34,828 bases of DNA, taken from positions 1-34,828 of the forward strand of contig BTVJ01000077.1 in NCBI GenBank assembly GCA_045863395.1, given 5' to 3'. Of the stretch, positions 3,739 to 24,288 are shown piece after piece. Numbering within the stretch: the stretch's first letter is position 1; the number at the start of each line of letters is the position of its first letter. The notes below the pieces were generated by a model that saw only the letters and a list, made by a program, of their open reading frames with translations, did no database searches and was not told the origin of the DNA. Position numbers and translations under genes: made by a program. This stretch comes from Myxococcales bacterium (lineage in GTDB: Bacteria; Myxococcota_A; UBA9042; JABWCM01; BTVJ01).

Positions 3739-5547
<1,809 letters not shown>

Positions 5548-5784: not shown

Positions 5785-7992
5785 TCAGGCGGGCCCGTCC
5801 GCGGGCTCGGTCTCCCCGTAGTAGCTGCCGTACCGACCGACGTAGTGGTAGTACCCGTAGCGCCCGCTGTCCAGGTCCAGGTCGTTGAGCACGCAGCCGA
5901 GGATCCGGGCGTTGACGGCTGCGAGGCTGTTGCGCGCATGCAGCAGCGTCTCCTTGGTCGTCTTGCCGCTCTTCGCGACCAGCACCACCCCGTCCACCTG
6001 GGTGCCGATGACGATGGCGTCCGTCACGGCGATGATCGGAGGGGAGTCGAAGATGATCGTCTCGTAGTGCTGCTCGAGCTCAGCGATCAGCTCGCGGAAC
6101 CTCTCGGTGTGCAGGAGCTCCGCCGGGTTTGGAGGGCACGGCCCACAGGGGATCAGATCGAGCCCCGGCACCTCCGTGGGGATCACGAACCTGGTGATCG
6201 GATCCTTGCCCACCAGGTAGTTGGAGACACCGACGTCGGATGGCGCGTCGAAGGACGTGTGCAGCTTGGGTCGGCGCATGTCCGTGTCGATGAGCACGAC
6301 GCGCCCGCCGGAGGCCGCCATGGTGATGCCCAGGTTGATGCTGATGGTGGTCTTGCCCTCCTGCGGCCCGGGGCTCGTCACGACGAAGGTCCGCAGCTTC
6401 CCCCCTGGCAACATGAACAGGAGGTTCGTGCGGATTGTGCGGCTCAGCTCGGCCACCGTGGACTTGGGCCGGTAGTGCACGTACAGCTCCTTCTTCCCCT
6501 CGAAGGCCTCCTCGTGCCGCCGGTGCCGCTTGTCCGTGCGGATGGTGGGCACCATGCCCAGGAAGGTGACCTGAGCCACCTGCTCGATGTCCAGCCGAGA
6601 CTTCACCGTGTTGTCCATGAACTCCACGAAGAACGCGAGGGTGATACCGCCGAACAGGCCAAGGAGCATACCCAGCGCCACGTTGAGCTTCATGTTCGGC
6701 TTCACGGGCACGGTCGGCATCTGCGCGAGGTCCAGCAGGCGCACGTTGTTCACGTTCACCTGCGACGTCATCTTGGTCTCCGTCTGCCGCTGGCTGACCT
6801 TGTCGAAGTTGAGCCGGGCGTCCTCGCGCTTCTCGACCAGCCGCTGGTACTCGATCTTGAGCTCAGCCACCCGGGAGTCTTCGAGCTGGGCCGCCTTCAG
6901 CCGCTCGAGCAGGCGTTGCTCACGCATCTTGAGGCGCTCCACCCTGTGCTCGACGCTGGTGATGATGTTCTTCACCTCTTTGCGCGCCGCCGCCTCGACC
7001 AGGCTCAGGCGCTCCTTGGTGCTCCTGACCTTCGGGTACAGGTCGCCGTAGTCCGTCTCGAGGCCCTTCATCTCGCTCTTCAGCTCAAGCCACTGGGTCT
7101 TGAGCTGCTGGATGATGGGGCTCGCGAGCACCTCGGCGAGCGACACCTTGAAGATGTCCTTCTCATTCTTGTATCGGCGCACGACGGACAGCTCCGCCTG
7201 CGCCTGCTCGCTCTCCCGCCGCAGCACGTCGAGGTCTGCGTTGATGGTGGCGATGCGTTGATCGATGGCCTTCTTCTGGTTCTCGAAGGTCCCGACCTCG
7301 TGGAGGCGCTCGAAGTCGCGGGCCGCGGTCTCCGCAGCCTCCTTGGTCGCTCCGAGGTCGGCTACGATGCCCGAGAGCTCTCCATAGGCTTCGTTGACGA
7401 CCCGCTGCTTGTGCTCCAGGTTCTCGGAGCGGTAGGCGTTGGCCACCGCATTCGCGAGCTCCATCGCAAACGCGGGATCCGGGTCCTCGATGCTGATGAA
7501 CACCATCATCGAGTCCTTGAGGGGCTCCACCTCGATGCGCTGGATCAGCGCATCCACCGGGTCGCGGCTCGCCATCAGCTCCGCGGCGCGGTCAGGCTCC
7601 TCCCGCTGAAGCTCCTCGCTCACCCCCAGGAACGCCGCGTTGTACCGGAGGCCGAGCCGATCCACGACGCTCTCCGCGACCGCGCGGCTCTTGATGATCC
7701 GGTACTGGGTCTGGAAGTACTCCTTGTTGGACCAGTAGTTGGCGTTGCCGAGGTCGATGACCTCCGCCATCCCCGGCAGGACCCGCGGCGGGTTCCGATC
7801 GATGATGACCGACGCGGTCGCACGGTAGACGGGCGTCTGCCGGGACGTCCTGAACACCATCCCGGACACGACCGCGATGAAGAAGACGGCGATGATCCAC
7901 TTGCGCTTGTAGAGGACGAACGCATAGCGCTTCAGGTCGAGCCGCGAGGGATCCTCCACGCTGACCTGGCTCACGTCGTTCCGCACAGTCAT
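5785..7992 (-). CDS. wzc: Wzc-type polysaccharide co-polymerase with fused BY tyrosine kinase
   Basis: Two TM segments flank a coiled-coil periplasmic domain. Walker A SPGPQEGKTT, A' LIDTDMRRP, B IIFDSPP, C-terminal Tyr cluster RYGYYHYVGRYGSYY. Start placed at ATG 7992 (RBS GGGAGG); the ORF extends to GTG 8013. Confidence 0.93.
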   Translation of the reverse strand: MTVRNDVSQVSVEDPSRLDLKRYAFVLYKRKWIIAVFFIAVVSGMVFRTSRQTPVYRATASVIIDRNPPRVLPGMAEVIDLGNANYWSNKEYFQTQYRIIKSRAVAESVVDRLGLRYNAAFLGVSEELQREEPDRAAELMASRDPVDALIQRIEVEPLKDSMMVFISIEDPDPAFAMELANAVANAYRSENLEHKQRVVNEAYGELSGIVADLGATKEAAETAARDFERLHEVGTFENQKKAIDQRIATINADLDVLRRESEQAQAELSVVRRYKNEKDIFKVSLAEVLASPIIQQLKTQWLELKSEMKGLETDYGDLYPKVRSTKERLSLVEAAARKEVKNIITSVEHRVERLKMREQRLLERLKAAQLEDSRVAELKIEYQRLVEKREDARLNFDKVSQRQTETKMTSQVNVNNVRLLDLAQMPTVPVKPNMKLNVALGMLLGLFGGITLAFFVEFMDNTVKSRLDIEQVAQVTFLGMVPTIRTDKRHRRHEEAFEGKKELYVHYRPKSTVAELSRTIRTNLLFMLPGGKLRTFVVTSPGPQEGKTTISINLGITMAASGGRVVLIDTDMRRPKLHTSFDAPSDVGVSNYLVGKDPITRFVIPTEVPGLDLIPCGPCPPNPAELLHTERFRELIAELEQHYETIIFDSPPIIAVTDAIVIGTQVDGVVLVAKSGKTTKETLLHARNSLAAVNARILGCVLNDLDLDSGRYGYYHYVGRYGSYYGETEPADGPA

Positions 7993-8014
7993 GAGCCGCC
8001 TCCCCGGTACCACC

Positions 8015-8695
8015 TCATAGGACCGACTCGGGCACGAAGACGATGTCTCCGGGCATCAGGAGGAAGTTGGGCGCCCTCCCCTCGCTGATGTCCTCCACCG
8101 GGACTCCAATCCGAAGCTCCGAGCTCCCCTCGACCCGCGTGACCACCGTCGAGTTCTTCGACGCCCGCGACGAGAACCCCCCAGCGAGGGTGATCGCCTG
8201 TACGATGTTCATCGACTCCTCGTAGCGGAACGTCCCGGGCTTCTGGACCTCCCCCAGGACGAACACCTTCTTGGAGTTGAACTCCTTGACGAACACGTTG
8301 ACGCTCGGATTGCGCAGGTAGCCTTGCCTCAGGCCGTCCCGGAGCCGGTCGGCGAGCTCCGCCGGCGACAACCCCTCGACGGACACGATGCCCACGAGTG
8401 GAAAATCGATGGTCCCCGACGGCGTCACGCGGTAGGTGCCGCTGAGGTCCTTCTCCTGGTAGACGGTCACCTCGAACACGTCCCCCGGCCCGAGGATCGA
8501 CGCCTGCACGGTGACCGCGCGGACGTCGACGGGCATGTGGTCCCTGTACCGCTCTGTCTTGCCGCTGCCACAGCCGGCCGTCAGGACCCAGCTCGCGAGG
8601 AGGACGAGCAACAGAGTCGAGGTGTCGCAACGCACCAGCGGCCGACGTGCTGAACCGGATGTCTGGGCTGACGAAGGACTCGGCGCTCTTGTCAT
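8015..8695 (-). CDS. wza: Short OPX (Wza-family) polysaccharide export lipoprotein, Poly_export plus one SLBB domain
   Basis: Lipobox-like LTAGC, PES motif [11 protein letters not shown]...[24 protein letters not shown]...AITLAGGF. Ends [12 protein letters not shown] with no C-terminal OM helix. Exact start uncertain. Confidence 0.88.
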
Positions 8696-8751
8696 GGATG
8701 TCCTGCGACCAACGCCACCGCCGGGGATCGGCGCTTCGAGCGGCGTCGTCC

Positions 8752-8780
8752 ATTGTCCCCCGTCACGACGAGCGGCGCAA
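8752..8780 (-). promoter_or_regulatory. Possible internal sigma70-type promoter for OPX-wzc
   Basis: Minus strand TTGCGC-N17-GACAAT in the 125 bp gap between the barrel and OPX genes; weak match. Confidence 0.3.
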
Positions 8781-8820
8781 GCGTGCGTGAGGCGAGCCGG
8801 GCGGCTGGCGCCATCGATGG

Positions 8821-10098: not shown

Positions 10099-10172
10099 CT
10101 GATCGTCGTCCTCGCTGCGCCGCCGCACCGTCACCCGGGGCCCACTGAACGCCGGCTCCACGGTGCGCGCGC

Positions 10173-10727
10173 CTACTTCGACTGACTGGCTGACACCGGA
10201 CGGTCCATCAGGATCTCTACGTCCTTCAGATCTCCCGTGGGATCGTACTCGGGCAGATCGGAGTCCAGAACCTTCTCGATGACCGGACGCCCATCAACGG
10301 TTCCGTCGGAGTCGGGACCGCCACAGCTCCTCACCTGGGCATCGAGCTCGATGAACTTGTTGTGTGCAATGGCGATCTTGATGGCCTCGTGCTCGGCGCC
10401 ATCGCGATCATTGCGAGACGCCGCCTCCTGCAAGGCGATCTTGTTGCGCTCGGCGAGCTTCATGAGCCCCTTCATTGGGGTCAGCGCATCAGCGATGCAG
10501 GTGGTCTGAGCTACGTCCTGACCGGCACGAGAGGCCTCGAGGGCCTGAAAGCCCGCCTTGAGCATCTCGTTCATCTCGGCGATCTTCGCTTCGGCGTCCT
10601 CCCCCATCTGGGAGGCGCTCATGTTCGCGAAGCTGGTAGCCTGCCGCTCCTGCGCTACGGCGCCAGCCGATCCCAGCATGATCGCAACGATGGCGACGAT
10701 CTGGGCTTGAACTGCTCTCATTCGCAT
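10173..10727 (-). CDS. Secreted alpha-helical hypothetical protein (184 aa, two Cys)
   Basis: ATG 10727 follows RBS GGAGAAGGG and a good promoter. Signal peptide (IVAIVAIMLGSAGAVA-Q), helical core with Cys in QTTCIAD and VRSCGG, acidic Pro-containing tail. Confidence 0.8.
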   Translation of the reverse strand: MRMRAVQAQIVAIVAIMLGSAGAVAQERQATSFANMSASQMGEDAEAKIAEMNEMLKAGFQALEASRAGQDVAQTTCIADALTPMKGLMKLAERNKIALQEAASRNDRDGAEHEAIKIAIAHNKFIELDAQVRSCGGPDSDGTVDGRPVIEKVLDSDLPEYDPTGDLKDVEILMDRPVSASQSK

Positions 10728-10758
10728 GGTTATGGACCCTTCTCCGCGGTGCAGCGCT

Positions 10759-10787
10759 ACGTTAGTGGAGGTCGCGCTTGGAGTCAA
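10759..10787 (-). promoter_or_regulatory. Sigma70-type promoter for the hypothetical/barrel/OPX/wzc module
   Basis: Minus strand TTGACT-N17-TAACGT, about 30 nt upstream of ATG 10727. Confidence 0.65.
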
Positions 10788-11130
10788 ACCTACGCGGCCA
10801 AACCGTCGTCCATCCGTCACCCCGCTCGACATCGCCCCTCGTAGCCCCAACGTAGTGGTCCCGAGGGTGCCGCGATCCTTGCGCAGGGCCTCATCGCGCA
10901 GGGCGCCAGCGCCCGCTGCGACTGCTCCAGGCTGGTGGGTTGCCAGGCTGCGCAGCGGTGATCAAACTTTCTCGTCACAGGCAGCCGGACCTCCAGCACC
11001 TGATCCCCATGACGCGCACCATCGGCCCGTCGTACCGATAGCCTGAGGGCCACGACCACATTTTTCGCTGCCCACGTTGATCCAGGTTGGTGGCAGCCCA
11101 GGCGAAGTCTTGTTGATCCAGAAATGGTGA

Positions 11131-11159
11131 AGCCGCCCCCGACGATGTCCGGGGCGGCT
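11131..11159 (-). terminator. Putative intrinsic terminator or stabilising hairpin after the gltG-like gene
   Basis: Perfect 9-bp stem AGCCGCCCC/GGGGCGGCT plus inner GAC/GTC, 27 nt after the stop; followed on the minus strand by TCACCATTTCT, a weak U-tract. Confidence 0.55.
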
Positions 11160-11186
11160 ACACACTGAACCCGAGGAAGAGACCCG

Positions 11187-12644
11187 TCAGCGCCCGCGCG
11201 ACAGGATGAAGGGGTACGAGAAGGTCACGCTACCGTTGTCCGGCGGGTCGAAGCGCCATCCGCGGACCTTCTCGACGATGCACTTGCCGATGGACGCGTC
11301 GCTGGTGGAGTTGCTCGTCACGTCGATGCTGGTGATGCGACCGGCGGGCCCGATGGTGAACTGGATGCTGATCTTGCCCTCCACGTTCGGGTTGACCTTC
11401 AGGGCGCGCTCGTAGCAGGTCCGGATGGCGCCCTGGCGGCGGCGGAACACCTTGGCGACGGCGTTCTTGTCGATCTTGCCGGTCCCGATGGCTTGGCCCA
11501 AGGACCCGCCCACCTTGACCTTCACCTTGACCTCGTCAGTGCTCTCCTTCGCCGCGGTCTTGACCGTACCGGCCTTGGGTCCCGCGATCTCGTTGGAGCT
11601 GATCGTCTTGTAGGTGTTCCCGGACGCCTCAGCGCTGGCCTTGGGCCCGCCTCGGAACGTGCCGCTCTCACCCTTCTCGGCGATCTTGACGCCACCAGAG
11701 ATCTCCCATGCCTCGTCGAGCTTCTTTGCAGTGGCGCCGTCGGCCAGGGTGTTGGCGTAGTCGCCGCTCCCAGGTCCGGCCGAGCCCACGAACTTGAGGA
11801 TGGTCGTGGACTTCACCCTCTCCACGGCCTTTGCGTAGGCCTCCGTGCCCTTCTTCAGCGGCTGCTTGGCGCCGACCTGGGCCGCCTGGACCTCGACCTT
11901 CTTCTCCTCCTTCTTCTCCTTGGGCTTCTCGATGGGCGGGGCCTCGACGACCTTCTCCTCGACCTTCTCCTCAGCGACCTCGGTGGGCTCGCCGTCCTTC
12001 TCCTCCTCGTCCTTCTTCGCCTCGGCCTCCTTCTCCTCCTTCTTGATCTCGACCTCGGTCTTCAAGGTCTCGAACAGCTTCGACTCACGACGCTTCGTGG
12101 GCTCCTCGTACTTGCCGTACTTCTCCCACCAGAAGTGCAGGCCGCCGATGAAGCCGCCCTGAATGATGAACGAGAGGGCCATGATGCCGAGGAGCGCCGT
12201 GTCGATGCGGTTGACCCAGCTCCCCTTGGCGATGGCGGGGAGCTGCGGACGCGCCATGGTAGGCGGCGGCGCGACGAACTGGAACAGCAGCGTCACATCC
12301 CCGAGCGTGATCTTGCCACGGCTGTTCTCCGTGAGGGGCACGGTCCAGACGCTGCCCCGCTTCTGCGCGAGCTGCTTCTCTCGAAGCGTCCTGAGGTCGA
12401 TGACCTTGTCCTTCACCGACACACGCCCCCCCATGGTGTCGTCGAAGTTCAGGTGGTATGCCCCGCCCCGGATGTCGAGCAGCTCGAACGTCCGAGGGAG
12501 CCGCGACGCCGGGATGCTGAACGTGTTCTTTGTCGCCTGACCGATGGAGACGGCGTCGTGCTTGCGCAACAAGCGCTCTTCCAGGATCCGGCCGTTCTGG
12601 ATCACCCCAATGCGCAGGATCTTCGTGGTGTTGGGCTTGGACAT
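11187..12644 (-). CDS. GltG/PglI-like TonB-type energy transducer (AgmX/PglI C-terminal domain)
   Basis: N-terminal cytoplasmic domain KILRIGVIQNGRILEERL...RGKITLGDVTLLFQFV, one TM segment, Lys/Glu-rich linker, C-terminal TonB_C-like IRTCYERALKVNPNVEGKISIQFTIGPAG...CIVEKVRGWRF...FSYPF. Start ATG 12644 with RBS GAGGT. Confidence 0.85.
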   Translation of the reverse strand: MSKPNTTKILRIGVIQNGRILEERLLRKHDAVSIGQATKNTFSIPASRLPRTFELLDIRGGAYHLNFDDTMGGRVSVKDKVIDLRTLREKQLAQKRGSVWTVPLTENSRGKITLGDVTLLFQFVAPPPTMARPQLPAIAKGSWVNRIDTALLGIMALSFIIQGGFIGGLHFWWEKYGKYEEPTKRRESKLFETLKTEVEIKKEEKEAEAKKDEEEKDGEPTEVAEEKVEEKVVEAPPIEKPKEKKEEKKVEVQAAQVGAKQPLKKGTEAYAKAVERVKSTTILKFVGSAGPGSGDYANTLADGATAKKLDEAWEISGGVKIAEKGESGTFRGGPKASAEASGNTYKTISSNEIAGPKAGTVKTAAKESTDEVKVKVKVGGSLGQAIGTGKIDKNAVAKVFRRRQGAIRTCYERALKVNPNVEGKISIQFTIGPAGRITSIDVTSNSTSDASIGKCIVEKVRGWRFDPPDNGSVTFSYPFILSRGR

Positions 12645-13396
12645 CCTGTTCAACCTCACCAAGTCGGAGCAGATTCGCTGAGAGCTGGCCCGCCGCTTCC
12701 GGCACGCCGGTGCCGTGGTTGGTGCCCTGCCGTGTCGTGCACAAACCGCCCGTGGGCCACATGTCGACTCACCAGGAACCTATCGGCAGCGCTCCGAGGA
12801 TCTTGAGGGGTGTCCTCGCGGTCGGTCGCGCTGGGGCCGAAGTCCTCCCGGCATCCTTGGGAGCCAACCTGGAGGGCTTCGATCACCAGGTCATGCGCAG
12901 CACTGACCAGCGAGTGCTGAACGCTCTGGTTCGGACCGGGCCCTCGGACAATCACGGCATCCCCTCGACGCTGCCTCTCACAGGCTACAATACGCGCTTC
13001 GCTGCACAACGACACCATTCGTAACACGACGCCCACTCGTCGCGCTGGCTGGTGGGCCGATCCACAAGTCGCAGAGGGCCCATCGCTCGAGCGCTCGCCT
13101 TTGAGCGATCATCGTGCGGTCCTCAGACAACCACTCACAGTACCGGTTCTCGCCCCCCGATGCGAGCGGAGTCCTCACAGCCCGAGCGGCAGCGACGTGC
13201 TTGGACCTCTGGGCGTGCGAATTGTTTCGGCAGGGGAGCTGTGTTCGTGCGGAGGACACCGTGGACCACTTCCGCCGGGCGGGTCCACCTGTGCGCATCT
13301 GACCCACGAAACACGCAGTCGTCATCGGCGGTGTTCAGGGGATGAGCGCTAACGGAGGATGCGGAGGGGCGTTGGGAGTGGCCAGCCGGAGAACGA

Positions 13397-14071
13397 TCAC
13401 CGCTCGCTGGACTTGATGATGGCGAATCGGAGGTCGTGCAGCTCTGCCATGCCCGACGTGTGAACCACCTCGGCGATCATGCGGAACGGGATGTTGCGAT
13501 CACAGATGATGGTCGCCACGCCCTTGTACTCGCGCTGCAGCTTGAGGTTCTCCTCCTTCTGCTCGCGGACCAGGCGCTCCAGCTCCTTGTGGAGGGGCGA
13601 GATCAGGAACTTCTCGTCGGAACCGTCCTCCTTGAAGGACTTGTCCACGTAGAAGTACATCTGATCAGCCCGAGCGTGCTCCTCGGGAGAGCAGGCCTCG
13701 ATGTCGCGCTCACAGTGGCCGAGCATCTCGTAGTCGTCCTCGGAACACATCTGTCCGCCGATCTTGCAGCTCACCTTCACGACGGCCTTCTTGTCGGCCA
13801 GGATGTGCCGCTTGGTCACCGTCACAGGGATCGAGTCCTCCGCGTTGTAGTCCGCGGTGGACTTGGCGAGGACCAGGTCGGCGGTCTGGGTGATGTTCAG
13901 CGGGTCGCTGGTCAGGGTCACGAGGAGGAACACCAACAAGATGGTCATGATGTCCATCAGGGAGTTGATGTTCAGCGAGCCGCCGCCCTTCTCGCGATGC
14001 TTGACTCGCTTCCGCTCCTTGGCCCAATCCTCGTCTTCCTGAGGGGGAGTGTTGAAGATCTCGTCAGCCAT
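13397..14071 (-). CDS. ExbD/TolR-family stator subunit, AglS-like
   Basis: LNINSLMDIMTILLVFLL TM helix with the conserved Asp (D40); C-terminal IICDRNIPFRMIAEVVHTSGMA ExbD periplasmic motif. Confidence 0.9.
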   Translation of the reverse strand: MADEIFNTPPQEDEDWAKERKRVKHREKGGGSLNINSLMDIMTILLVFLLVTLTSDPLNITQTADLVLAKSTADYNAEDSIPVTVTKRHILADKKAVVKVSCKIGGQMCSEDDYEMLGHCERDIEACSPEEHARADQMYFYVDKSFKEDGSDEKFLISPLHKELERLVREQKEENLKLQREYKGVATIICDRNIPFRMIAEVVHTSGMAELHDLRFAIIKSSER

Positions 14072-14130
14072 CTCTTTTCGCTCTCCTGACAGACCGGATT
14101 CCGAGCCAGCGGCTCCGGCTGAGTCGCGTA

Positions 14131-14721
14131 TCAGTCAGCTACCACGAACACCACGTTGTCGAACAGCACCTGCGCCTCGCCTGTGTTGGCCTCACGCTTC
14201 GGCTTGGCCGCGGAATAGCTCGAGAGGTCGTCGTAGGAGTCCTCCTCGAGCTGCACGCGAGACGCGTCAATGGTCCGCGCGATGATGTGCCAGGGGATGT
14301 CGAAGTCCGCGCCGATGTTGATTGTTCGCTCCTTCGGCCACTGCTTCTTCTTCGTCATCAGACGAGAGTACAGCCTCGGGTAGTCGTAATCGACATAGGA
14401 CACGCCGTCGTCCGTCTGGAAGGTGCGCTTCATGATCTGCGGCTCTGGCTCCGTCGTGAGCTCCTCCTCCTGCGACAGCTTGAAGCCCTTCTCCGACACC
14501 AGAACCGTGAGGTTCAGCGGCTTCTTCTCGTTCTCCTTCTTCGCCTCCGACTTGCCCGTCCCCATCTTGGGTGCGGACACGCCCTGGATCTTCACTTCGA
14601 AGAAGTTGAACGCGTACAGAAGGACCGGAATGAGGATCGTGAGGATCGCCATGATGGGCGTCAGGTTGATCTCATCCAGCTCTACTGCGGAGTGGCTTCG
14701 CTCTGATGGTTTCCGTGACAT
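14131..14721 (-). CDS. ExbD/TolR-family stator subunit, AglQ-like, conserved TM Asp replaced by Ala
   Basis: EINLTPIMAILTILIPVLL TM helix, LNLTVLVSEKGF, YDYPRLYSRL, INIGADFDIPWHIIARTIDASR, ending LFDNVVF; lies between the ExbB-like gene and the second ExbD-like gene. Confidence 0.88.
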   Translation of the reverse strand: MSRKPSERSHSAVELDEINLTPIMAILTILIPVLLYAFNFFEVKIQGVSAPKMGTGKSEAKKENEKKPLNLTVLVSEKGFKLSQEEELTTEPEPQIMKRTFQTDDGVSYVDYDYPRLYSRLMTKKKQWPKERTINIGADFDIPWHIIARTIDASRVQLEEDSYDDLSSYSAAKPKREANTGEAQVLFDNVVFVVAD

Positions 14722-14799: not shown

Positions 14800-15456
14800 C
14801 TAGCGCTCGCCGCCCTCAGCACCGCCGCCAGAGCGACCGCGGGAGATCAGGAGGTTCTCGAGCTTCACGGAGTACTGATCGATCTCATCGATGATCTTCT
14901 TGGTGACGCCCGACAGGAAGATGTGCGCGGCCATGCACGGGATGGCGACGATCAGACCGAATGCCGTCGTGTTCATGGCGAGCGAGATGTTGCGGCCGAG
15001 GGCCTCCTGCCGCTTGTCGGCGGACACGTTGGCCAGGTCGTTGAAGGCTCCGATCATTCCGATGATCGTTCCGAGCAGTCCGAGCAGAGTCGCGATGTTC
15101 GCGATGGCCTGAAGGGAGTTGGTTCGCTTCTGGATGTGAGGCACGACCTCGAGGGTCGCCTCCTCGACGGCGTTCTGGATCTCCAGCTCGCCCTTGTTGG
15201 CTCGCGTGAGGCCCGCCTTGATGACCTTCGCCAATGCAGCCGACGGTGCCGCGTTGCAGAGCTTGATCGCCCGGTCGATGTTGTTGGCCATGACCAGCTT
15301 CTGGATCTGCGCCATGAAGGCAGTCGCATTGATGTTGTACTTGAAGAACAGGAAGATGAACCGCTCGATCATGATGCCGACGCCGAAGATGGACACCACG
15401 AGGATGATGTACATCCAGATGCCGCCGGTTGAGAATGCCTTTGCGATCTGGTCCAT
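14800..15456 (-). CDS. MotA/TolQ/ExbB proton-channel protein, AglR-like
   Basis: GGIWMYII...IERF, ANIATLLGLLGTIIGMIGAF, ISLAMNTTAFGLIVAIP; RBS GGAGG. Confidence 0.93.
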   Translation of the reverse strand: MDQIAKAFSTGGIWMYIILVVSIFGVGIMIERFIFLFFKYNINATAFMAQIQKLVMANNIDRAIKLCNAAPSAALAKVIKAGLTRANKGELEIQNAVEEATLEVVPHIQKRTNSLQAIANIATLLGLLGTIIGMIGAFNDLANVSADKRQEALGRNISLAMNTTAFGLIVAIPCMAAHIFLSGVTKKIIDEIDQYSVKLENLLISRGRSGGGAEGGER

Positions 15457-15665: not shown

Positions 15666-15974
15666 CTAGAAGGGGTTGTCGCGCACGGACTGGACGACCT
15701 TGTCCACGAAACTCTTCTTGACCTCGCGATCACCGTACCTCGCGTCCGTCCGTCCCAGGACATAGAAGACCTCGGGCTTCTGGATGCGCCCCTCTATGAC
15801 GAGGGCCTCCAGCTCTTGCACCCGCGGGGGAGCCTTCTCTGCCCGCTTGCCCTTGCCTGATGCCGCTGCTCCGCTGCCTGACTCGGCAGGATCCTGCGCT
15901 GACGCCAACGACCCCGAGAGCAGAAGCGCGCCTACTATAGCAAAGCGACCAGTCGATTTGAACAATCTTTTCAT
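15666..15974 (-). CDS. GltF/CglF-like small periplasmic protein
   Basis: Signal peptide ending ASA-Q; C-terminal IEGRIQKPEVFYVLGR...SFVDKVVQSVRDNPF matches the recalled GltF-family pattern; follows the GltE-like gene. Confidence 0.8.
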   Translation of the reverse strand: MKRLFKSTGRFAIVGALLLSGSLASAQDPAESGSGAAASGKGKRAEKAPPRVQELEALVIEGRIQKPEVFYVLGRTDARYGDREVKKSFVDKVVQSVRDNPF

Positions 15975-16024
15975 GGGCCGATCCTTCGCTCTTCGTCACG
16001 AAAGGTGGTGACGGTTACACTACG

Positions 16025-17527
16025 CTACTGCGGCTCCGGTAGAGGGACGGGCTCCTCCTCCGGGGGGGGGAGCGTCGCGGGCGCCGGCTCACCGCTCGGC
16101 GCAGGCTCGGGCGCGGCCGAGGGAGTCGGGTCTGGGAGTGCCGGGGGCGGTGGAGAGCGCTCCAGGGGAGCCTCTACCGGTGGAGATGGCGCAGGAGGAG
16201 CTACCTCACCCCCGGGCTCCTCACCCGGGTCGCCCTGGTCCTCCGGGTCGCCCTGGTCCTCCGGGTCGCCCTGGTCCTCCGGGTCGCCCTGGTCATCTTG
16301 CGGCTCCTCATCAGCCGGCTCGGGCTGCTTCTGCGCCTCCTCCCGCCGCTGCTGCTCGATCTTGATCAGCTCCTTCGCCTCAGCGATGAAGCCGTCGATC
16401 TCTTCATCGCGCGCGCTCGACGCCCTCCTGGTCCGACGGTACTCACCGAACTCGTCCATGGATCTCTGGAGCCGCGCCTCTGGATCCAGCCCGGCGACCT
16501 GGTTCTCCAGATAGAGGATGCCCAGGTTGTAGTGGGCCTCCGCCAGGGTCACGTCGATGGACAGGGCCTTGCGATATGCTTCCTCGGCCTCGCGATACTG
16601 CTGGAGCCCGCGCAGGCCATTGCCCAGGTGCAGGTACAGCGACGCCACGCCCGGCGCGAGCGCAATGGCCCGGCGCAGCTCCTCGACGGCGGCCGAAGCG
16701 TCACCCACCTGTGCATAGAGCGCGCCCAATGCGCTGAGCGCCTCGATGAACTCCGGGTGCGCCTCCACCGCCTTCTGCAGATAGTGGATGGCGCCGGTCA
16801 GGTCCTGGTCCGTGACCCGGATTCGAGCCATGAGGAGGTAGAGCTCCGCATCTGGTCTGATCTCCAGCGCCTGCTTCAAGATATAGCCGGCGTTCTCCAG
16901 CTTCCCCATCTTGAGGTAGCAGGCAGCCAGATTCCTCATGGCGCCCAGGTTGGTCTCATCCTTCTTGAGGACCTCCCGTGCCTCGCGGAGGACCGCCGAG
17001 AGGTCGCCACTCTCGATCATCGCCCTGTGGAGGATGTTCTGGAAGCTGAGGTTGTCCGCATCCTCGCGCGCCGCATCACGCGCGAGCTCAACCGCACGTT
17101 GCGGCTCGCCTGCTACGGCCCAGGTCCGGACTGCAAGGTCCAGGGCCGCCACATAGGGTGACTCCGTGCTGTCGCGGAACGCCCTCTCGGCGCTCTCGGC
17201 CGCCTCCCGATGCCGCCCCAGCCGCGAGAGTCCGATGGCGAGCTTGTACCGGGTGGCCGGGGTCGACGCTCCACCCTCGATGGCCTGCTGAAGGCGCTCG
17301 ACGGCCTCCTGGGTACGGCTCGCCGCCAGCAGGTCGGAGCCCTGCGACGCCAGGGCCTCGGCGTCGATCCTGGGAGCTTGCGGCACGGCATCTTGGGGAG
17401 GCGTGAGTCGGACCTCCCTTGGCGTGCCCGAGCAGCCCGCCAAGACGACCAGTGCGGGCACCACGGTCCGCAACGCCAGTCGACCGAAGGCAGCAGGGCG
17501 AACCCACCGAAGACAGGCCAACATCAC
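16025..17527 (-). CDS. GltE/AglT-like TPR lipoprotein with acidic Pro-rich tail
   Basis: Lipobox LAGC, multiple TPRs (e.g. LHLGNGLRGLQQYREAEEAYRKAL, AHYNLGILYL); GTG start overlaps the upstream TGA. Confidence 0.82.
   Translation of the reverse strand: MMLACLRWVRPAAFGRLALRTVVPALVVLAGCSGTPREVRLTPPQDAVPQAPRIDAEALASQGSDLLAASRTQEAVERLQQAIEGGASTPATRYKLAIGLSRLGRHREAAESAERAFRDSTESPYVAALDLAVRTWAVAGEPQRAVELARDAAREDADNLSFQNILHRAMIESGDLSAVLREAREVLKKDETNLGAMRNLAACYLKMGKLENAGYILKQALEIRPDAELYLLMARIRVTDQDLTGAIHYLQKAVEAHPEFIEALSALGALYAQVGDASAAVEELRRAIALAPGVASLYLHLGNGLRGLQQYREAEEAYRKALSIDVTLAEAHYNLGILYLENQVAGLDPEARLQRSMDEFGEYRRTRRASSARDEEIDGFIAEAKELIKIEQQRREEAQKQPEPADEEPQDDQGDPEDQGDPEDQGDPEDQGDPGEEPGGEVAPPAPSPPVEAPLERSPPPPALPDPTPSAAPEPAPSGEPAPATLPPPEEEPVPLPEPQ
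16225..16294. repeat. 18-bp tandem repeat, about 3.9 copies, encoding (E/D)DQGDP in the GltE-like tail
   Basis: Unit ccgggtcgccctggtcct at 16225, 16243 and 16261, with a 16-nt partial copy at 16279. Confidence 0.95.
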
Positions 17528-20500
17528 GGCTGCCCCCCATCACTGCGGTCGGCGTCGTCCGGCTCCGGGAGCACTCCGCTCGGCTTGCTTTGAGGTGGCT
17601 CCGGTGGGGTCGGCTCCGCTCCAGTCGGCGCGGGCGAACCTGCGCTGGGCACCTCCCCTCCGGGTGCTTGGGGCGAGGTGGCACCTTCGCCGGCTGGCGG
17701 ATCGACGACGTCCTCGGGCTCTTCGATCTCCTCAGGTCGCTCCACGCCCTCCCCCGGTTTGGCGTCCGGCAGCGCGGCTCCAACCGCCGAGAACTCCAGG
17801 ACCTGCTTCTCTTGCTTGAGGAGCGGGTACTCCGCGGGCTTGTACTTGTTGATGCTCTCCAAGGCTCGTCGGGTCCATTCGTTCGTGACCTTCAGCTCCC
17901 GCGCCTTGGCCAGGGTGGTCTCGTAGCGCTCGATGGCGGTGTTCTCGTACCGGAGCCCGGCGTCCTCCAGCTCGGTCATGTAGAGGTCCTCCTCCTCCTC
18001 GGTGAGCGAGTCGGGGACCGGCGCCGAGTAAAGCGTCTTCGCATACTCCTGGTAGATGTTGCCGATGCGGAAGTAGCCGGCGAAGGTCCAGTCGAGGGCC
18101 TTGTACGGGAAGATGTCGATGTACGCCTTCTCGAGTTCGTAGAGCATCGCCTCCTTGCGCTGCAGAGTCTTCCCCATCTGCGTCAGGTTCCCCTTGAGCT
18201 CGATGGCCTTGTACTCGGCGAACTTCATCTCGATGAGCTCGAACTGGGCCTTGGCCGGGAAGGCAGCCTCCTCCGACCCAGCTTGGAGGCCCCGCGCCTG
18301 GAACTCGGCGATGACCTTCTGATAGAGGCTCGACGCCTCGCGCTGGTTGCCTCGCGCCTTCGCGGCATCCGCCAGCTCCAGGGTTGCCTGGACGACGAGG
18401 GCGTTGGCGCTCGGAGTCGCGCCGTACTTGGCGATGAACTGTTTGAAGATGCGCTCGGCGTCCTTGTGACGCCCCATGTCCTTGTAGATGGACGCCGCCC
18501 GGAACAGCGCGTCGGCCGCGTCATCTCGCTCGAGGAAGAGCTGCTCGTACCGCTCGAAGTTGGCCGCCGCGTCCACGAGCTGCTGGTCGTTCTGCTGCAG
18601 ACGCGCCGCCTCGAAGAGGGAGTAGGGTGCGTTCGGGTTCTTCGGGTTCTTGCGGACGAGGGCAAGGAAGCCGCTGATGGCCCGGTCGAAGTTGAAGAAC
18701 TTCTTGTTGTTCTCGCTGAGGCGGAACAGGGCATCCTCCACGAACTCGCTCTGCGCGAAGCGCGGCTCCGTCACGATGCGCTCGAAGATGCGGGCCGCCG
18801 AGTCGTAGTGGTGCACCTGCTGATAGGCCATCGCCGCGTTGTAGAGCGCCTTGTCGGCGAACTGCACCTGGCGCCCCTCGTTCTCGTCCACCAGGCGCTC
18901 GAACTCGCGGGCGGCGGCGAGGTACTTCTCCTCCGCCAGGAGCTGCTCGGCCCTCTGGAACTGGGCGCCGAGCTTGAAGACCCGGATCTCTTCCTGGAGC
19001 TTGGCCGCGTCCTCTCCCTTGCCAATCTTCTTCTGGGCGATGATCCCGGCCCACTTCTCGATGCTGGCCCAGTCGTTCTCTTCCTTGAAGGAGTTGATGA
19101 TGTTGGCTGCGGCGTATGCCGCCACCTCGCTGCCCGGGTAGCGATCGATGATCTCGGCAAAGCGGCGGCGCGACTCGTCGTACTGCTTGAATCGGTGCAC
19201 CATCTCGGCTGCCTGATACGCCAGGTTGCCTTGTGCGTCCTTGTCCTTGGCGCGGTTGAGGTCCGCCTTGACGTAGGCGTCCACTTCGCCGACCCACCGT
19301 GAGACCAGCGGCGGGATGGGCTTGCCCTGTACGCGCGCGACCTCCGTACCACGGCCCTGTCGACCGTCACCCTGCTCCTCTTCAGCCGCGGCGACCTCGC
19401 CCGGCACGGCGCTGCGCGCGAGTCGCCCCGCCGCAGCTTCGGTCTCCATGTACTTCTCGATGGCCTTGATGGCCGAGAACCCCGCTACCTCACGATACTT
19501 CGCCTTCTCCGGCCAGTCGCGCACGCGCACGTAGCGGTCCGCTCCGTCGAGGAAGCGCCCGGAGTAGAACAGCGTCTCCGCATGGAAGAAGGTGAGGTCG
19601 TAGGCATCGCGGCTCGCCGGGTAGCGGTCGAGATACACCGCGTAGGCGGTCGCCGCCTCCTGGTACTCGCGCGCCGCCTGCTCGAGCAGCGAAGGATCGC
19701 TCTCCGTCGATGCGCGCGACTTGAGCTCCTGGGCAAGCTGGTGGTGGAACTGCGCCGTCTGCCTGAGCGCCTGCTCGACGAGCCTGTCGGCGGTCGACGT
19801 CGCGGCCGGCTCGTCCATGTTGGCCCGGTACCAGGGGCTCCCGGGCGCGAACATCGTCGCGAGCTGGAGCCGGGCCTTCATGGAGCGGTCCGTGTCCCGC
19901 ATGATGTCGTAGATGGCGATCACCTTCTCCATGTACTCCGGGTTCTCCTTGGCCTTGGGATCCCGGTCGATCAGGCGGAGGTAGACCTCGGCGGCCTGCG
20001 CATACTTCGTGCGCTCGTGCAGCTCGTACAGGCTCTTGGCGTACTCGGCGATGATCTCTCGCTCATAGGGTTTGCCATCCCGCAGGTAGGACATGGCCCG
20101 ATCAACGCCCGCGTTGTCGTCCGGGAGGCCATCTCCGTCCCAGTCGTCCTCCGCGAGGCTCAGGGCGAGGTACTCGATGGCCTCGATCCGAAGCGCACCG
20201 GCCAAGGCCCGATCCCCCTTCTCCGCCACGTGGTCATACGACTCGATGAGCTGCTTGAAGGCGACGATGGCCTTGTCGTAGTCGTACTGCTGGAAGTAGG
20301 TCCACGCGAGCTTGTAGACGGCCATCTCGTAGAAGCGGCTGTCCGGGTACTCCATCGCTGCCTTGTATGCAGCGACGGCCTGCTCCCAGTCGCCGTCGTC
20401 GAAGTGGAACTCACCCACGCGCAGCCACGCCTCGGCGGCATACTTGGACTTGGGGTACCTCTGCACGAGGGTCGTGAACGTCTCGCGGGCTTGATCGTCC

Positions 20501-21132
20501 TCCCCCGAGTTCACCAGTACGTAGCCCAGCAGGTAGTACGCCGCGTCAGCGTAGCGGTAGTCCGGGAAGCGCTCGATCAGCGTGCGGTACATCCGCTCGG
20601 TGTCGTCGAAGCGCTGCACGGGTTGCACCGGCTCCGACGGGATCTTTCCACGGTTGTAGAGGTCGGCCTCCTTGTCGTAGCCAGCCATGGCAGTCGAGAA
20701 GTCGCTCGACGACTTCTCGTAGTAGAGCTCGGCGAGGCGGAACATGGCGTCGGGTGTGTGCTCCGGGTGGTTCGGGTACTTGACGACGAACTTCTGGAAC
20801 ACGTCGATCGCCTCGAGGCGCCGTCGCTGCTGCTCGACGTCGATCTCGCCGACGACCCGGTCATAGCTCTCGTTGATGAAGCCCTCGCGCCGCTTGATCT
20901 CGCTGCGGACGAGGTCGTTGACCTCCGAGCTCAGCTCCTTCGCGACCCCCCGGAACTCCGCGGCGCTGCGCTTGAACTCCTCGAGGGCCTCCTCGTACTC
21001 CAGCCCGCGGAGCCTGGAGATGGCGGTCCCTCCGGTCCCACGCCGGGGCGCAGCGTCAACGGCCGTCCACAGGAGGGCGGCCATCACCCCAACGAGCAGC
21101 GGGGCTCGTCGCATCGCCTGCGACCTACTCAT
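17524..21132 (-). CDS. GltD/AgmU-like large periplasmic TPR protein
   Basis: Signal peptide then about 1200 aa of TPR/BamD-like repeats (PDAMFRLAELYYE, YAAEAWLRVGEFHFD, YKLAWTYF, ADKALYNAA); C-terminal APVPDSL...YMTELED...NEWTRRALESINKYKPAEYP as recalled for GltD. Start placed at ATG 21132 (RBS GAGGGGG), overlapping the upstream stop; ORF-track start 21210. Confidence 0.85.
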   Translation of the reverse strand: MSRSQAMRRAPLLVGVMAALLWTAVDAAPRRGTGGTAISRLRGLEYEEALEEFKRSAAEFRGVAKELSSEVNDLVRSEIKRREGFINESYDRVVGEIDVEQQRRRLEAIDVFQKFVVKYPNHPEHTPDAMFRLAELYYEKSSSDFSTAMAGYDKEADLYNRGKIPSEPVQPVQRFDDTERMYRTLIERFPDYRYADAAYYLLGYVLVNSGEDDQARETFTTLVQRYPKSKYAAEAWLRVGEFHFDDGDWEQAVAAYKAAMEYPDSRFYEMAVYKLAWTYFQQYDYDKAIVAFKQLIESYDHVAEKGDRALAGALRIEAIEYLALSLAEDDWDGDGLPDDNAGVDRAMSYLRDGKPYEREIIAEYAKSLYELHERTKYAQAAEVYLRLIDRDPKAKENPEYMEKVIAIYDIMRDTDRSMKARLQLATMFAPGSPWYRANMDEPAATSTADRLVEQALRQTAQFHHQLAQELKSRASTESDPSLLEQAAREYQEAATAYAVYLDRYPASRDAYDLTFFHAETLFYSGRFLDGADRYVRVRDWPEKAKYREVAGFSAIKAIEKYMETEAAAGRLARSAVPGEVAAAEEEQGDGRQGRGTEVARVQGKPIPPLVSRWVGEVDAYVKADLNRAKDKDAQGNLAYQAAEMVHRFKQYDESRRRFAEIIDRYPGSEVAAYAAANIINSFKEENDWASIEKWAGIIAQKKIGKGEDAAKLQEEIRVFKLGAQFQRAEQLLAEEKYLAAAREFERLVDENEGRQVQFADKALYNAAMAYQQVHHYDSAARIFERIVTEPRFAQSEFVEDALFRLSENNKKFFNFDRAISGFLALVRKNPKNPNAPYSLFEAARLQQNDQQLVDAAANFERYEQLFLERDDAADALFRAASIYKDMGRHKDAERIFKQFIAKYGATPSANALVVQATLELADAAKARGNQREASSLYQKVIAEFQARGLQAGSEEAAFPAKAQFELIEMKFAEYKAIELKGNLTQMGKTLQRKEAMLYELEKAYIDIFPYKALDWTFAGYFRIGNIYQEYAKTLYSAPVPDSLTEEEEDLYMTELEDAGLRYENTAIERYETTLAKARELKVTNEWTRRALESINKYKPAEYPLLKQEKQVLEFSAVGAALPDAKPGEGVERPEEIEEPEDVVDPPAGEGATSPQAPGGEVPSAGSPAPTGAEPTPPEPPQSKPSGVLPEPDDADRSDGGQP

Positions 21133-23560
21133 CTGCCCCCTCACCCTCGTCCGGCTCCTCTTCGTCCGCGTCGCCGTCCCCTGGATCGCTGGGCGGCGGA
21201 GCGGGGGCATCGAAGCCCTCCTCCTCGACGATGGACTTCAGAGCCTCTTGAAGTTGAGACAGGCGGTCCGCCTTCTCCTGGCTGAGCTCGGCGATCCGGT
21301 CGCTCTTGGCCTGCTTCTCTGCCCAGGCGATGTCGAGCAGCCCGAGGTCGGCCTCCAGCACGACGGCCGTGACCTTGGCCTGAGCGTCCCGGAACAGCGC
21401 GTTTCCGACCTCCTTGGCAACACGCCTGGACTCCGCCTCGTAGGTCGCCGCCTCCGCCTTGTAGGACGCCAGCCTGTCTCGCTCCAGCGCAATGAGCCGC
21501 TTGTAGAGCGCGATCTTGTCGTCCGCTGATCGCTGGATGCGGTCGAGGATCGCGCCCAGCGCGGCGAAGTCGTCCATCGCCTGCGAACGCACCTGCCCGA
21601 AGGCCTCAGCGACCCGGCGCTCATCCGACGGCAGGGCGCCCGACAACCGCCGATACAGCTCGTGCTCGCGCTTGTGGGCGGCGATGAGCTGGTTCTTGAT
21701 GTTCCCTTCGGCGGTGGTCGCGAAATCGCCCACGCCGATGCGCGCGTTCTCCAGATCGATGTCGCGCTTGACCTGCTCCAGCTCATCGTAGAGTGCCTTG
21801 AGCGACTCCTTCTCGACTTCGAGATCCGCCAGCATCGCCTTCTCGTGCTCACCGCTCCCGGGGGCCACCTGCGCGGCGTACCTGGCGTCCGTCAGCACCT
21901 TGTCCATGGCCGCGAGCTGCTCCCGCACGCGCTGCAGGCCCTGCTCCGTGACGAAAGCATCACGCTTCAGGGCATCGAAGCGCTCGTCGACCTCCCTCCG
22001 GCGCTCCTTGTAGTCTGCGACCGTGTGCGGGACCCGCGCCGTGAAGCGCTCCTCGAGCGCGCGACGCTCCGCCACCAGCTCCTGAACGCGCGCCCGGTCG
22101 TCGGCCCCGGCGGAGCGCAGGAGCATGGCTGCCTCAGCGTCCAGAGTGTCCCGCGTCACGACCAGGAGGCGGTTCTCCGACTCCATGATCCGCACCCACC
22201 CCGCCTGAAGTGCGGGGAAGATGTCTACGCGGCTCGACGACGAGAGGGCCGCGTCCAACAGCGCGGCGATCTCCATCGACTCCTTGACGTCCGCGCGCTC
22301 CCGGGCCATGTCCGCGAAGAGGCTCAGCACGGGCTTCATGGTGTCCACCCGCTCGACGAACGCCGCAGTCCGTGCGGAGAGCGGCGCTGCCACGTCGACC
22401 TGGTCGGAGTGACGCCGCAGGAGCCACTCGAAGTAGCGCGCCAGGTTCTTGTCGCTGCGCGCAAAGTCCTCGAGCTCGTTCTTGATGGGTGTGAAGCGAC
22501 CGATGACGTCCTTGTAGGACTCGCTCGCGTCATCGGCGACGTTCATCTGGAGCTGCACCCGGGCGCGCAGGACGCTTGCATCCACCGCGAGCTGCTCGTC
22601 CTGGACTGTCAGCAGCAGCACGTCGAGCGTGTGGAGCGCTTGCTCGAGGCGACCCTGGGCAGCGTAGGCGTAGGCCATCTCGTAGAGCGCATCCTCGAAC
22701 CAGGGCGACCGGCGGTCGATGGTCTGATACGCGTCCACTGCGGCATCCACGAGACCCAGCTCGGCGGACAGTCGCCCGACGGACAGGGCAGCCTGCTCAC
22801 GCACACGGGAGTCGGCATCCTCGCCGGGCTCGGCGACCATGGCCTCCCGGAAGTACGAGATCGCCTGCTCGTAGTCCTGCCACCCGGTGGACACCACGCC
22901 AAGGTAGTAGCGGGACGGGCCGTAGAAGGGGTCGCCTGGGGGCACCTCGGCGAGCCGAGTCGCCGCGTCCCGGTCGCGTCCCAGCCGCAGCAACGCCTTG
23001 CCCCAGGCGTACTTGACACCCGGCGCGGCGCTCCCCCAGGCGCGCTCGAGTTGCTTGACCAGGTCTGCGAGCTTGTCGCTCCAGCCCAGGTTGAGGGCGA
23101 TCTCAACGAGCAACCGCATGGCGTCGTTGGCCTGAGGGGCGCGGGTGAGCACCAGCTCGTCGAAGTACTGCCGCGCAGCGAGCCAGTTGCGCTCGAGGTA
23201 GAGGCTGTGACCGAGCAGCCACAACGCCTCCGTGTAGTCGGTGTTCTTCTTGAACACCGGGTTCTCCACCAGGTCCAGCAGGAGGATGCTGGCCATGTCG
23301 TAGTGGCGCAGATCGTAGTGGACCCTGGCATCGACCAGCCGCTTCTCAAGATCGTAGGTCGCGCCTTGCGCTACGGGCCTGGCGAACTCCTCCTGGAGCT
23401 GCTTGATGGAGCTCTCGATGTTTCCCAGATCCGTCCGCGCCCGATGCAGGACCTCGTCGTGTGCCGGCTCCGCGAACGACATGCGCGGGAGGAGCACGAG
23501 CGCCACTGCGAGCAGCGGCGCCATCAGTGGGTGGCTGCACATGCCGACGTTCCGCCTCAC
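21125..23560 (-). CDS. GltC-like TPR and coiled-coil periplasmic protein
   Basis: Signal peptide ending SFA-E, TPRs (YQTIDRRSPWFEDALYEMAYAY), long coiled-coil C-terminal half ending EADLGLLDIAWAEKQ; GTGA overlap with the upstream gene. Confidence 0.75.
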   Translation of the reverse strand: MRRNVGMCSHPLMAPLLAVALVLLPRMSFAEPAHDEVLHRARTDLGNIESSIKQLQEEFARPVAQGATYDLEKRLVDARVHYDLRHYDMASILLLDLVENPVFKKNTDYTEALWLLGHSLYLERNWLAARQYFDELVLTRAPQANDAMRLLVEIALNLGWSDKLADLVKQLERAWGSAAPGVKYAWGKALLRLGRDRDAATRLAEVPPGDPFYGPSRYYLGVVSTGWQDYEQAISYFREAMVAEPGEDADSRVREQAALSVGRLSAELGLVDAAVDAYQTIDRRSPWFEDALYEMAYAYAAQGRLEQALHTLDVLLLTVQDEQLAVDASVLRARVQLQMNVADDASESYKDVIGRFTPIKNELEDFARSDKNLARYFEWLLRRHSDQVDVAAPLSARTAAFVERVDTMKPVLSLFADMARERADVKESMEIAALLDAALSSSSRVDIFPALQAGWVRIMESENRLLVVTRDTLDAEAAMLLRSAGADDRARVQELVAERRALEERFTARVPHTVADYKERRREVDERFDALKRDAFVTEQGLQRVREQLAAMDKVLTDARYAAQVAPGSGEHEKAMLADLEVEKESLKALYDELEQVKRDIDLENARIGVGDFATTAEGNIKNQLIAAHKREHELYRRLSGALPSDERRVAEAFGQVRSQAMDDFAALGAILDRIQRSADDKIALYKRLIALERDRLASYKAEAATYEAESRRVAKEVGNALFRDAQAKVTAVVLEADLGLLDIAWAEKQAKSDRIAELSQEKADRLSQLQEALKSIVEEEGFDAPAPPPSDPGDGDADEEEPDEGEGADE

Positions 23561-24288
23561 TCCTTGCCCGGGCTCGCGGGGAGCTCGGAGCCGAACTTGG
23601 CGAGGTTCTCCTTGCTGTACTGGAACTGCTGGACCTCGTACTTGACGTACGGCTTGTCCTGGAGATCCGTCGTGATGTCCCCCTTCTCATAGCCGACCAC
23701 GGCCACCTTGGTGATGCGCCCCTTGGTCGCATAGAAGGTGTAGTTCGACTTGATCTTGAAGAGATAGCCATCCACGTAGCTGAACAACCCGCCGGAGCCT
23801 CGATACACGAGCTCGACGGAGATCATGTGGTTGCCAGGCAGGACGTTGCCATTGAAGATCTCGAAGTCCTTTCGGGAGTCGAGGACCCCGCCGCGGTTGT
23901 CCTGGAAGTAGATCTTCTTGCCATCCAGGTAGTACAGGACCTGCTCGAGGGTGAAGTCACCGCTCATCTCGTTGCGATGGACGACGACGGCCTTCGCTTC
24001 GGCGATCACGTTGTGCAGGATCTGCTCGCGGAGCAGCACGAGGCGGCTCTTGGTCTTGTAGACCTTCTCCTTCAGGCCGACGACCTTCTCCTCCAGATCT
24101 CGGAGCCGTGAGTCATAGTCGTCCGCCCCTTGGGTAGCCTGACCCTCAGGGGACTTGGGCGCCCCGAGCGCACGAAGGTCGGCCTCCGGCGTGCCGCCGC
24201 CACCTCCCTGTGCCGCTTGCGCAGCCACGGAGCCACCCTGTACGCACACGCATAGCGCCAGGGCGTACAGGGCCACAAAACGTCTCAT
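23557..24288 (-). CDS. Secreted hypothetical protein (coiled coil plus beta-rich domain), first gene of the glt-like cluster
   Basis: Signal peptide, coiled coil LRDLEEKVVGLKEKVYKTKSRL, beta-rich domain HRNEM...YYLDG...PGNH...YRGSGGLFSYVDGYLF; RBS GGGGAGG; coupled to the next gene. Confidence 0.85.
   Translation of the reverse strand: MRRFVALYALALCVCVQGGSVAAQAAQGGGGGTPEADLRALGAPKSPEGQATQGADDYDSRLRDLEEKVVGLKEKVYKTKSRLVLLREQILHNVIAEAKAVVVHRNEMSGDFTLEQVLYYLDGKKIYFQDNRGGVLDSRKDFEIFNGNVLPGNHMISVELVYRGSGGLFSYVDGYLFKIKSNYTFYATKGRITKVAVVGYEKGDITTDLQDKPYVKYEVQQFQYSKENLAKFGSELPASPGKE

Follow-up and report, generated by a model that had tools for sequence, protein, structure and literature searches.

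We found that a gene set resembling the G4 Glt-paralogue cluster of Myxococcus xanthus is paired, across the phylum, with a polysaccharide-type outer-membrane beta-barrel, and that this barrel is separated less often from the motor genes than from its cognate OPX or Wzc. Both modules are known; the pairing also includes two unnamed conserved proteins (H184 and H243) and an atypical stator. The window analyzed here is a whole 34,828-nt stretch of Myxococcales DNA, which is an entire contig (BTVJ01000077.1) from an 8.77-Mb genome that is 97% complete. Thirteen open reading frames (ORFs), all on the minus strand, fill positions 5785–24288 and encode, in order, H243, GltC-, GltD-, GltE- and GltF-like proteins, an ExbB-like protein, two ExbD-like proteins, a short GltG-like protein, H184, a BBP2_2 barrel, OPX and Wzc, with obg upstream and dnaK-dnaJ downstream. 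The motor half matches TPR proteins (below cut-off to the GltC, GltE, CglF/GltF and GltG models), MotA/ExbB, two ExbD and TonB_C, and the export half matches the BBP2_2 barrel, Poly_export with SLBB, and Wzz/GNVR/tyrosine kinase. These positions and matches agree with an original prediction, made from the sequence, of thirteen co-directional envelope genes in this order whose only outer-membrane barrel is of the polysaccharide type; the BBP2_2 protein is the sole ORF with an outer-membrane-barrel match.

We tallied 108 loci from 108 genomes, of which 107 hold the barrel. Loci were chosen by the best GltG match within the window's class, by an H184 match or by an H243/barrel match, those of other classes by H184, barrel or H243; the H184 search matched 102 of 151 genomes, and regions were taken for 59 of these. 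Because kin are not independent, families give the fairer count. The tally leaves out second GltG copies (L052, L070), GltG-like genes outside any block (L057, which may be a true break, and L068), contigs ending in gltG (L063, L067), an extra H184 copy without barrel (L082), L071–L073, L134–L153, L167, L169–L213 and the metagenome loci L215–L266.

The distance from GltG to a barrel downstream of it is at most 1.8 kb in 96 of the 107 loci and in 35 of 39 families; outside the window's class this holds for 62 of 66 loci. The dnaK/dnaJ flank follows the block in 36/38 loci of the window's own class and in 0/64 loci of other classes. Since the flank is lost there while GltG is kept, the pairing is not mere flank inheritance, and the predicted conservation of the adjacency is borne out by the neighborhood survey beyond chance. 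H184 adjoins the barrel in 100/107 loci, and a diverged secreted ORF occupies its slot in six more. The proven partners of the barrel are less constant: OPX is next to the barrel in 84/106 loci (44/66 in other classes), and Wzc is found within 1.9 kb downstream in only 26/102, so that Wzc is no fixed part of the machine.

Where OPX has left the barrel, ftsK-lolA or other genes lie downstream of it, and OPX is encoded elsewhere in all 18 searched genomes that lack an adjacent copy. Twelve regions around the best relocated OPX match included ten with a Wzc-like gene and none with a match to the barrel profile. We also considered 49 genomes treated as H184-negative (20 listed as such, 28 inferred and one added without a test). 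Among them, all 14 with a strong barrel match have H243 (12 on the same contig, 12–15 kb apart), a strong barrel match is missing from all 32 that lack H243, and three have H243 without a barrel match. In the OPX tree, 28 of 30 copies from barrel-less genomes fall outside the main WzaB-like clade, as do three in-block and four relocated copies, and this split by barrel presence is only suggestive. In several families, ftsK, often with lolA, is directly 3′ of the barrel gene (L105, L108, L116, L120–L122, L128).

By gene order, size and neighborhood, the motor half is of the G4 type. In M. xanthus, G4 comprises MXAN_1919–1923, which have had no assigned function since 2011 (PMC3169522; citations here and below refer to passages of the papers named). 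Their products of 447, 91, 490, 1111 and 809 aa compare with 485, 102, 500, up to 1228 and 811 aa in the window. G4 adjoins mglAB (MXAN_1925/1926), and wzaB and wzpB are MXAN_1915 and MXAN_1916 (PMC7310880, PMC12819527). The M. xanthus cluster without stator genes near wzaB/wzpB that the original prediction named does exist, at a distance of three genes from wzpB/wzaB. The window shares with G4 the GltC-D-E-F-G paralogues, a long GltC, a short GltG and a site just upstream of wzpB/wzaB-type genes. The GltG-like protein has one transmembrane helix, a charged linker and a TonB-like C-terminal domain; it is of the short G4 type, as NF033760 is matched only from profile position 216 of 650, which corrects the first annotation. 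Its NCBIfam score is 139 bits against a cut-off of 650 (GltC-like, 44 against 450), below that of a full-length, FHA-bearing GltG. The family matches of the block include no GltA/B/H or NfsA/B/H barrels, GltI/J/K or CglB. The GltD-like gene probably starts downstream of 21210, and its GltF-like neighbor has homologues ending in PF or PY in 104 of 116 cases.

The stator genes, an ExbB-like gene and two ExbD-like genes, stand in tandem as in AglRQS (M1). In place of the transmembrane aspartate, the AglQ-position subunit has N, S, A or G in 72/72 aligned rows with a residue, while the AglS-position subunit has D in 72/72. The alignment suggests a single-aspartate heterodimeric axle, unlike AglRQS, for which an aspartate is predicted in both AglQ and AglS. 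Residue D28 of M. xanthus AglQ is essential, and a D28N change paralyzes the motor (PMC3858216). The stator is inside the block in 61/88 loci and absent from it in 27/88; most genomes without an in-block stator have more distant AglR-like genes elsewhere (34–47% identity), and in many of them two AglR-like genes sit back to back in opposite orientation. No Agl-type stator other than that of the block was found in this genome, which has several Glt sets, and the stator is therefore probably shared with them. A stator dedicated to the block does not fit its absence from those 27 loci or its position as sole Agl-type stator in a genome whose further Glt sets have small barrels of their own. One such set is a gltCDEFG run with an FHA-type GltG on contig C20 (77888–86526), whose paralogues outscore those of the block on NCBIfam models. 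On contig C85, GltC/GltD stand next to a small barrel of OMP_myx_plus type, and genes for CglD/MIDAS-like adhesins are close by; C59 has gltEF; and C63 (18286–19616) has a tandem barrel pair of OMP_myx_plus type. These further Glt sets and GltA/B/H-type barrels suggest a separate gliding-type machine.

H184 is predicted by AlphaFold2 (AF2) to be a three-helix bundle with a low-confidence acidic tail, and a fold search returned no PDB match at E 0.001. Its relatives form 2,836 clusters at 50% identity, and Ser/Thr-Pro occurs within the last ten residues in 79/102 homologues. A complex prediction of H184, the barrel and the GltG C-domain scored 0.48 (0.42–0.62), compared to 0.00 for three controls, barrel replacement included; runs agreed in at least 43% of contacts, with partner pLDDT of at least 68. 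Of 157 solved complexes, 116 reach the mark for this score, as do 2 of 215 mismatches; both of these mismatches, but no more than 18 of the 157 complexes, do so with a score at or below 0.60. Binding of H184 to the barrel is thus weakly predicted, and synteny had made that guess likely beforehand. The suggested complex modelling gave this weak support for an H184–barrel contact and did not show one between motor and barrel. Binding of H184 by the GltG C-domain drew no support: in the control with both kept and the barrel replaced, the score was 0.00 and no contacts were given, a score that is not evidence against binding. Among the 150 best H184 relatives, a FecR domain precedes two as a fusion, and one relative is a tandem duplicate (P0214, P0192, P0123); a word search, which is weak evidence, found no longer fusion forms. 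A 708-aa protein near the C85 cluster did not match H184. In M. xanthus, two locus tags (1917, 1918) occupy the H184 slot; MXAN_1917/1918 would be H184 homologues, and MXAN_1924 the H243 homologue.

H243 has no Pfam or NCBIfam match. Its AF2 model (pLDDT 84) retrieved only generic beta-sandwiches in fold searches (best Z 9.6, rmsd 4.1, 100 aligned residues), which is uninformative on function. Its stop codon overlaps the gltC ORF; we rejected the possibility that it is the split N-terminus of an ordinary GltC, as no profile matched.

In the export half, OPX matches M. xanthus WzaB (PDB 9N9A, E 1e-56; 7XFD, 8e-16) and has the class-3 features of Poly_export plus one SLBB, a lipobox and no C-terminal membrane helix. 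A large beta-barrel gene (PF10082) adjoins it, as a class-3 translocon requires. Wzc is adjacent too, and five Wzy_C and three WecB-like genes, none of them assigned, lie elsewhere in the genome. The barrel profile has no match among PDB sequences. The N-terminus of the barrel is short and variable, with neither a fused plug nor an N-terminal TonB box, so the protein does not qualify as a TonB-dependent transporter. In M. xanthus, wzaB mutants have a swarm defect (PMC7310880).

Assembled RNA-library contigs provided evidence on transcription; stretches without coverage were not used, and run X1, with even coverage over the region, may be DNA. The hairpin that had been proposed after gltG does fold stably (11110–11190, z −4.56, 0/200 shuffles as stable), but it has no clean U-run and was not called by a terminator scan. 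It is likely a terminator or processing site. The proposed promoter at 10759–10787 (TTGACT-17-TAACGT, 8/12) fared less well, scoring under the scan threshold. RNA-library contigs from four studies pass it and end at 10900, 10915, 10921 and 10922, a weak hint, and a start of the H184-barrel unit near 10920 is therefore more likely. These ends agree, as weakly, with the original prediction that the modules are probably transcribed separately. Other contig ends, among those listed, hint at the units H243-gltCDE, gltF with the stator, and gltG, and one contig ends at 24367, near a sigma-70-like site upstream of the first gene. A sigma-54-like motif near 10931–10946 was unconvincing, occurring in 6/98 H184 upstream regions compared to 2.6 ± 1.8 in shuffles. 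In a correction to the first description, a gap of ~750 bp (12645–13396) separates the second ExbD gene from gltG. It contains no convincing gene, RNA-library contigs cover parts of it, and the corresponding gap has a median of 148 bp in 68 relatives.

Features of the block in the window, in order of transcription, with the evidence for each
Feature	Positions	Strand	Evidence
Sigma-70-like site TTGACC-18-TATACT upstream of first gene	24386..24415	-	Weak: 2 sites vs 1.5 expected by chance
H243, secreted: coiled coil and transthyretin-like beta-sandwich	23557..24288	-	AF2, fold search; G4-specific, single copy
GltC-like TPR scaffold, long G4 type, 811 aa	21125..23560	-	NF033756 E 1.6e-11, below cut-off; MXAN_1923 = 809 aa
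GltD-like TPR protein	17524..21210	-	TPR matches; tblastn to the genome's other GltD-like genes
GltE-like TPR lipoprotein	16025..17527	-	NF033758 E 2e-12; lipobox LAGC
GltF/CglF-like small secreted protein, C-terminal PF	15666..15974	-	NF033764 E 3e-4
AglR/ExbB-like stator subunit	14800..15456	-	PF01618; channel motifs conserved
First ExbD-like (AglQ-position) subunit, without transmembrane aspartate	14131..14721	-	PF02472
Second ExbD-like (AglS-position) subunit, aspartate kept	13397..14071	-	PF02472
Short GltG-like force transducer	11187..12644	-	NF033760 E 2e-40; NF033768 above cut-off; PF03544
GC-rich hairpin 3′ of gltG	11131..11159	-	Candidate terminator or processing site
H184, secreted three-helix bundle with acidic tail; predicted barrel partner	10173..10727	-	AF2, synteny, complex prediction
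WzpB-type outer-membrane beta-barrel, 425 aa	8821..10098	-	PF10082 E 1e-14; orthology inferred from synteny
Short lipoprotein OPX, WzaB type	8015..8695	-	PDB 9N9A match
Wzc co-polymerase, fused tyrosine kinase	5785..8013	-	Walker motifs, Tyr-rich tail

Beyond the block, dnaK, dnaJ and a periplasmic-binding-domain lipoprotein (955–5547) trail it in most genomes of the window's class. Near the contig end, the product of 31195–34779 is a large protein of secreted type that combines thrombospondin-3 and MopE-like Cys/Asp repeats with a beta-propeller at its C-terminus.

Our preferred and still tentative explanation is a motor-coupled pore, whereby a G4-type motor would hold the WzpB-type barrel and move or load its polymer while being inessential for export. 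By analogy with the Glt model, AglR and the two ExbD-like subunits would pull GltG by means of the proton gradient, the TonB-like domain of GltG would hold GltF and GltD, and GltC would form an outer-membrane scaffold. H184, H243 or GltC may bridge the scaffold to the barrel, which would take the place held by GltA/B/H in gliding. The motor would then dock on the barrel and move or load it, and polymer would be released or spread; export itself is probably driven by Wzy/Wzc. Blocks without a stator of their own, that of M. xanthus among them, would rely on another Agl-type stator. The link would run through GltC, H243 or H184 and not directly through GltG, because in the Glt model the TonB-like domain of GltG binds GltF and GltD while GltC contacts barrels (PMC11761067). 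The same model argues against the TonB-C domain acting directly on the barrel, as first proposed. Counted in favor of a motor-coupled pore are the GltG–barrel linkage, the retention of the barrel with G4 after OPX leaves, the co-occurrence of H243 and barrel, the lack of a GltA/B/H-type barrel in the block, the H184 complex score, the analogy with Glt/Nfs and the shut WzpB loops. The broader idea that the motor may act on the barrel/OPX/Wzc channel or its polymer therefore retains its support from conserved adjacency and the weakly predicted H184–barrel contact, and lacks a demonstrated motor–barrel contact.

Several observations weigh against such coupling, and many of them would be expected if G4 and the H184-barrel-OPX genes were simply inherited, co-regulated neighbors that act independently, with H184 a mere barrel accessory and the order kept by regulatory convenience. 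Of the 107 loci, 11 do not keep the linkage (the six of family f7 without exception, f19, f20, two of f48 and one of f8), and locus L046 has a motor block with no barrel downstream. In f7, where no close G4-type GltG was found, the best GltG matches are weak (E 1e-28 to 1e-35), yet six loci keep H184-barrel-OPX-Wzc. The two modules look separately transcribed, from the contig ends and the hairpin, and obg too is kept upstream in many loci. Partial tree-distance correlations over 48 loci, in which kin are not independent, are 0.48 for barrel–OPX, 0.59 for GltC–GltG and −0.24 for GltG–barrel, grouping the modules apart. A polar MXAN_1922 insertion did not appreciably affect motility; the legend of the figure mentions soft-agar insets (PMC3169522). 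WzaB binds WzpB and WzcB directly, and the force is proposed to come from Wzc cycling (PMC12819527). A long, conserved N-terminal extension such as that of GltA/B is missing from the barrel, and the stator is probably shared. Independent neighbors nevertheless leave unexplained why the GltG–barrel linkage outlasts both the dnaK flank and the partners OPX and Wzc, and why H243 and the barrel are present or absent together; we consider this explanation somewhat unlikely. Inter-protein mutual information (70–117 paired loci) was uninformative, with expected partners no better than other pairs. As a separate observation on f7 (L074–L079, L172, L173), the block is split, and H243-gltCDEF faces H184-barrel-OPX-wzc-dnaK within 25 kb in three genomes.

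A stronger role for the motor would be export gated by the proton-motive force (PMF), in which the motor pulls H184 as a detachable plug from the barrel in a TonB-like cycle required for polymer exit. The weak prediction of H184 on the barrel and the FecR fusions are consistent with it, as is a strand in the tail of H184 that resembles a TonB box. The WzpB gate is also shut at rest in simulations, its loops needing a trigger (PMC10955716). However, motility is not appreciably impaired in the MXAN_1922 mutant (PMC3169522), agl mutants still deliver slime and spore polymer to the cell surface (PMC3858216), and the passages describing the WzpX and WzpS barrels give them OPX partners without mentioning Glt. 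PMF-driven export as an essential step, as in the original prediction, conflicts with these G4 and agl mutant phenotypes, and we regard gating as quite improbable. Export does not depend on Glt and Nfs, which act after it to move polymer and outer-membrane cargo (PMC3858216); together with the MXAN_1922 phenotype, the direct WzaB-WzpB-WzcB binding and the rate correlations, this favors an accessory role over an essential energizing step. It is equally improbable that the barrel has a second job, anchoring G4 in the outer membrane for envelope upkeep or the transport of non-polysaccharide cargo, while OPX and Wzc use the pore separately. The barrel does remain with G4 without an adjacent OPX in 22/66 loci of other classes, often followed by ftsK-lolA, and G4 lies beside mglAB in M. 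xanthus, but OPX is found elsewhere in every searched genome of this kind, WzpB is described as the terminal component of biosurfactant polysaccharide (BPS) export, and epimerase, UDP-sugar dehydrogenase and wzc genes trail the block in some families.

If the link is physical, an energized arm and a new subunit, H184, would be added to OPX/beta-barrel secretion, and gliding would gain genomic support for having evolved from polysaccharide handling. A further and unlikely proposal is that the ancestral myxobacterial Agl-Glt system was a proton-powered polysaccharide exporter, whose single-aspartate stator pulled a free-standing plug, H184, via GltG and a TPR relay to open an 18-stranded porin, and that exchanges of its outer-membrane partner gave rise to the machines for gliding and for the spore coat. 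With a motor of G4 type beside a pore that exports surfactant polysaccharide, the link is open to direct experiment in the tractable M. xanthus. A motor–pore link may be discussed in an opinion article of 2015 about capsule biogenesis and motility. The passages of PMC3858216, PMC7310880, PMC3169522, PMC9601211, PMC12819527, PMC11761067, PMC12204202, PMC9603273, PMC10955716, PMC9389320 and the preprints 10.64898/2026.09.26.754727 and 10.1101/2020.09.30.318626 contain no statement of a link between G4 and wzpB/wzaB. Among these passages, G4 locus tags occur only in PMC3169522, six supplementary files of which, outside the search, may show G4 neighborhoods.

Compared to known systems, the block shares with ExbBD-TonB and TolQRA a 5:2-type stator and a TonB-like transducer. 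It differs in that its axle is heterodimeric, its TPR relay is large, and its barrel carries neither a fused plug nor a TonB box at the N-terminus. The Agl-Glt 'core complex' of Gammaproteobacteria, Geobacter and Fibrobacter also has GltC-D-E-(small gene)-AglRQS-GltG in one run (PMC3169522), and the one gammaproteobacterial core-complex locus examined (L073) has no H243, H184 or barrel match. The Agl-Glt gliding (G1/G2/M1) and Agl-Nfs spore-coat machines share the GltC/D/E/F/G homologues and a three-gene ExbB/ExbD-like stator, whereas the block is without GltA/B/H/I/J/K or CglB, has a short GltG, falls below cut-off on NCBIfam Glt models and contains two extra secreted proteins. With the WzpB-WzaB-WzcB class-3 translocon of the BPS pathway (PMC12819527, PMC9603273, PMC9601211), it shares a short WzaB-like OPX, an adjacent barrel and a fused-kinase Wzc; the passages on that translocon describe no H184-like subunit and no motor, and wzx/wzy lie outside the window's block. 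The M. xanthus G4 cluster has the same gene set, order, lengths and place three genes from wzpB/wzaB, while the window additionally carries the stator genes inside the block and wzc downstream.

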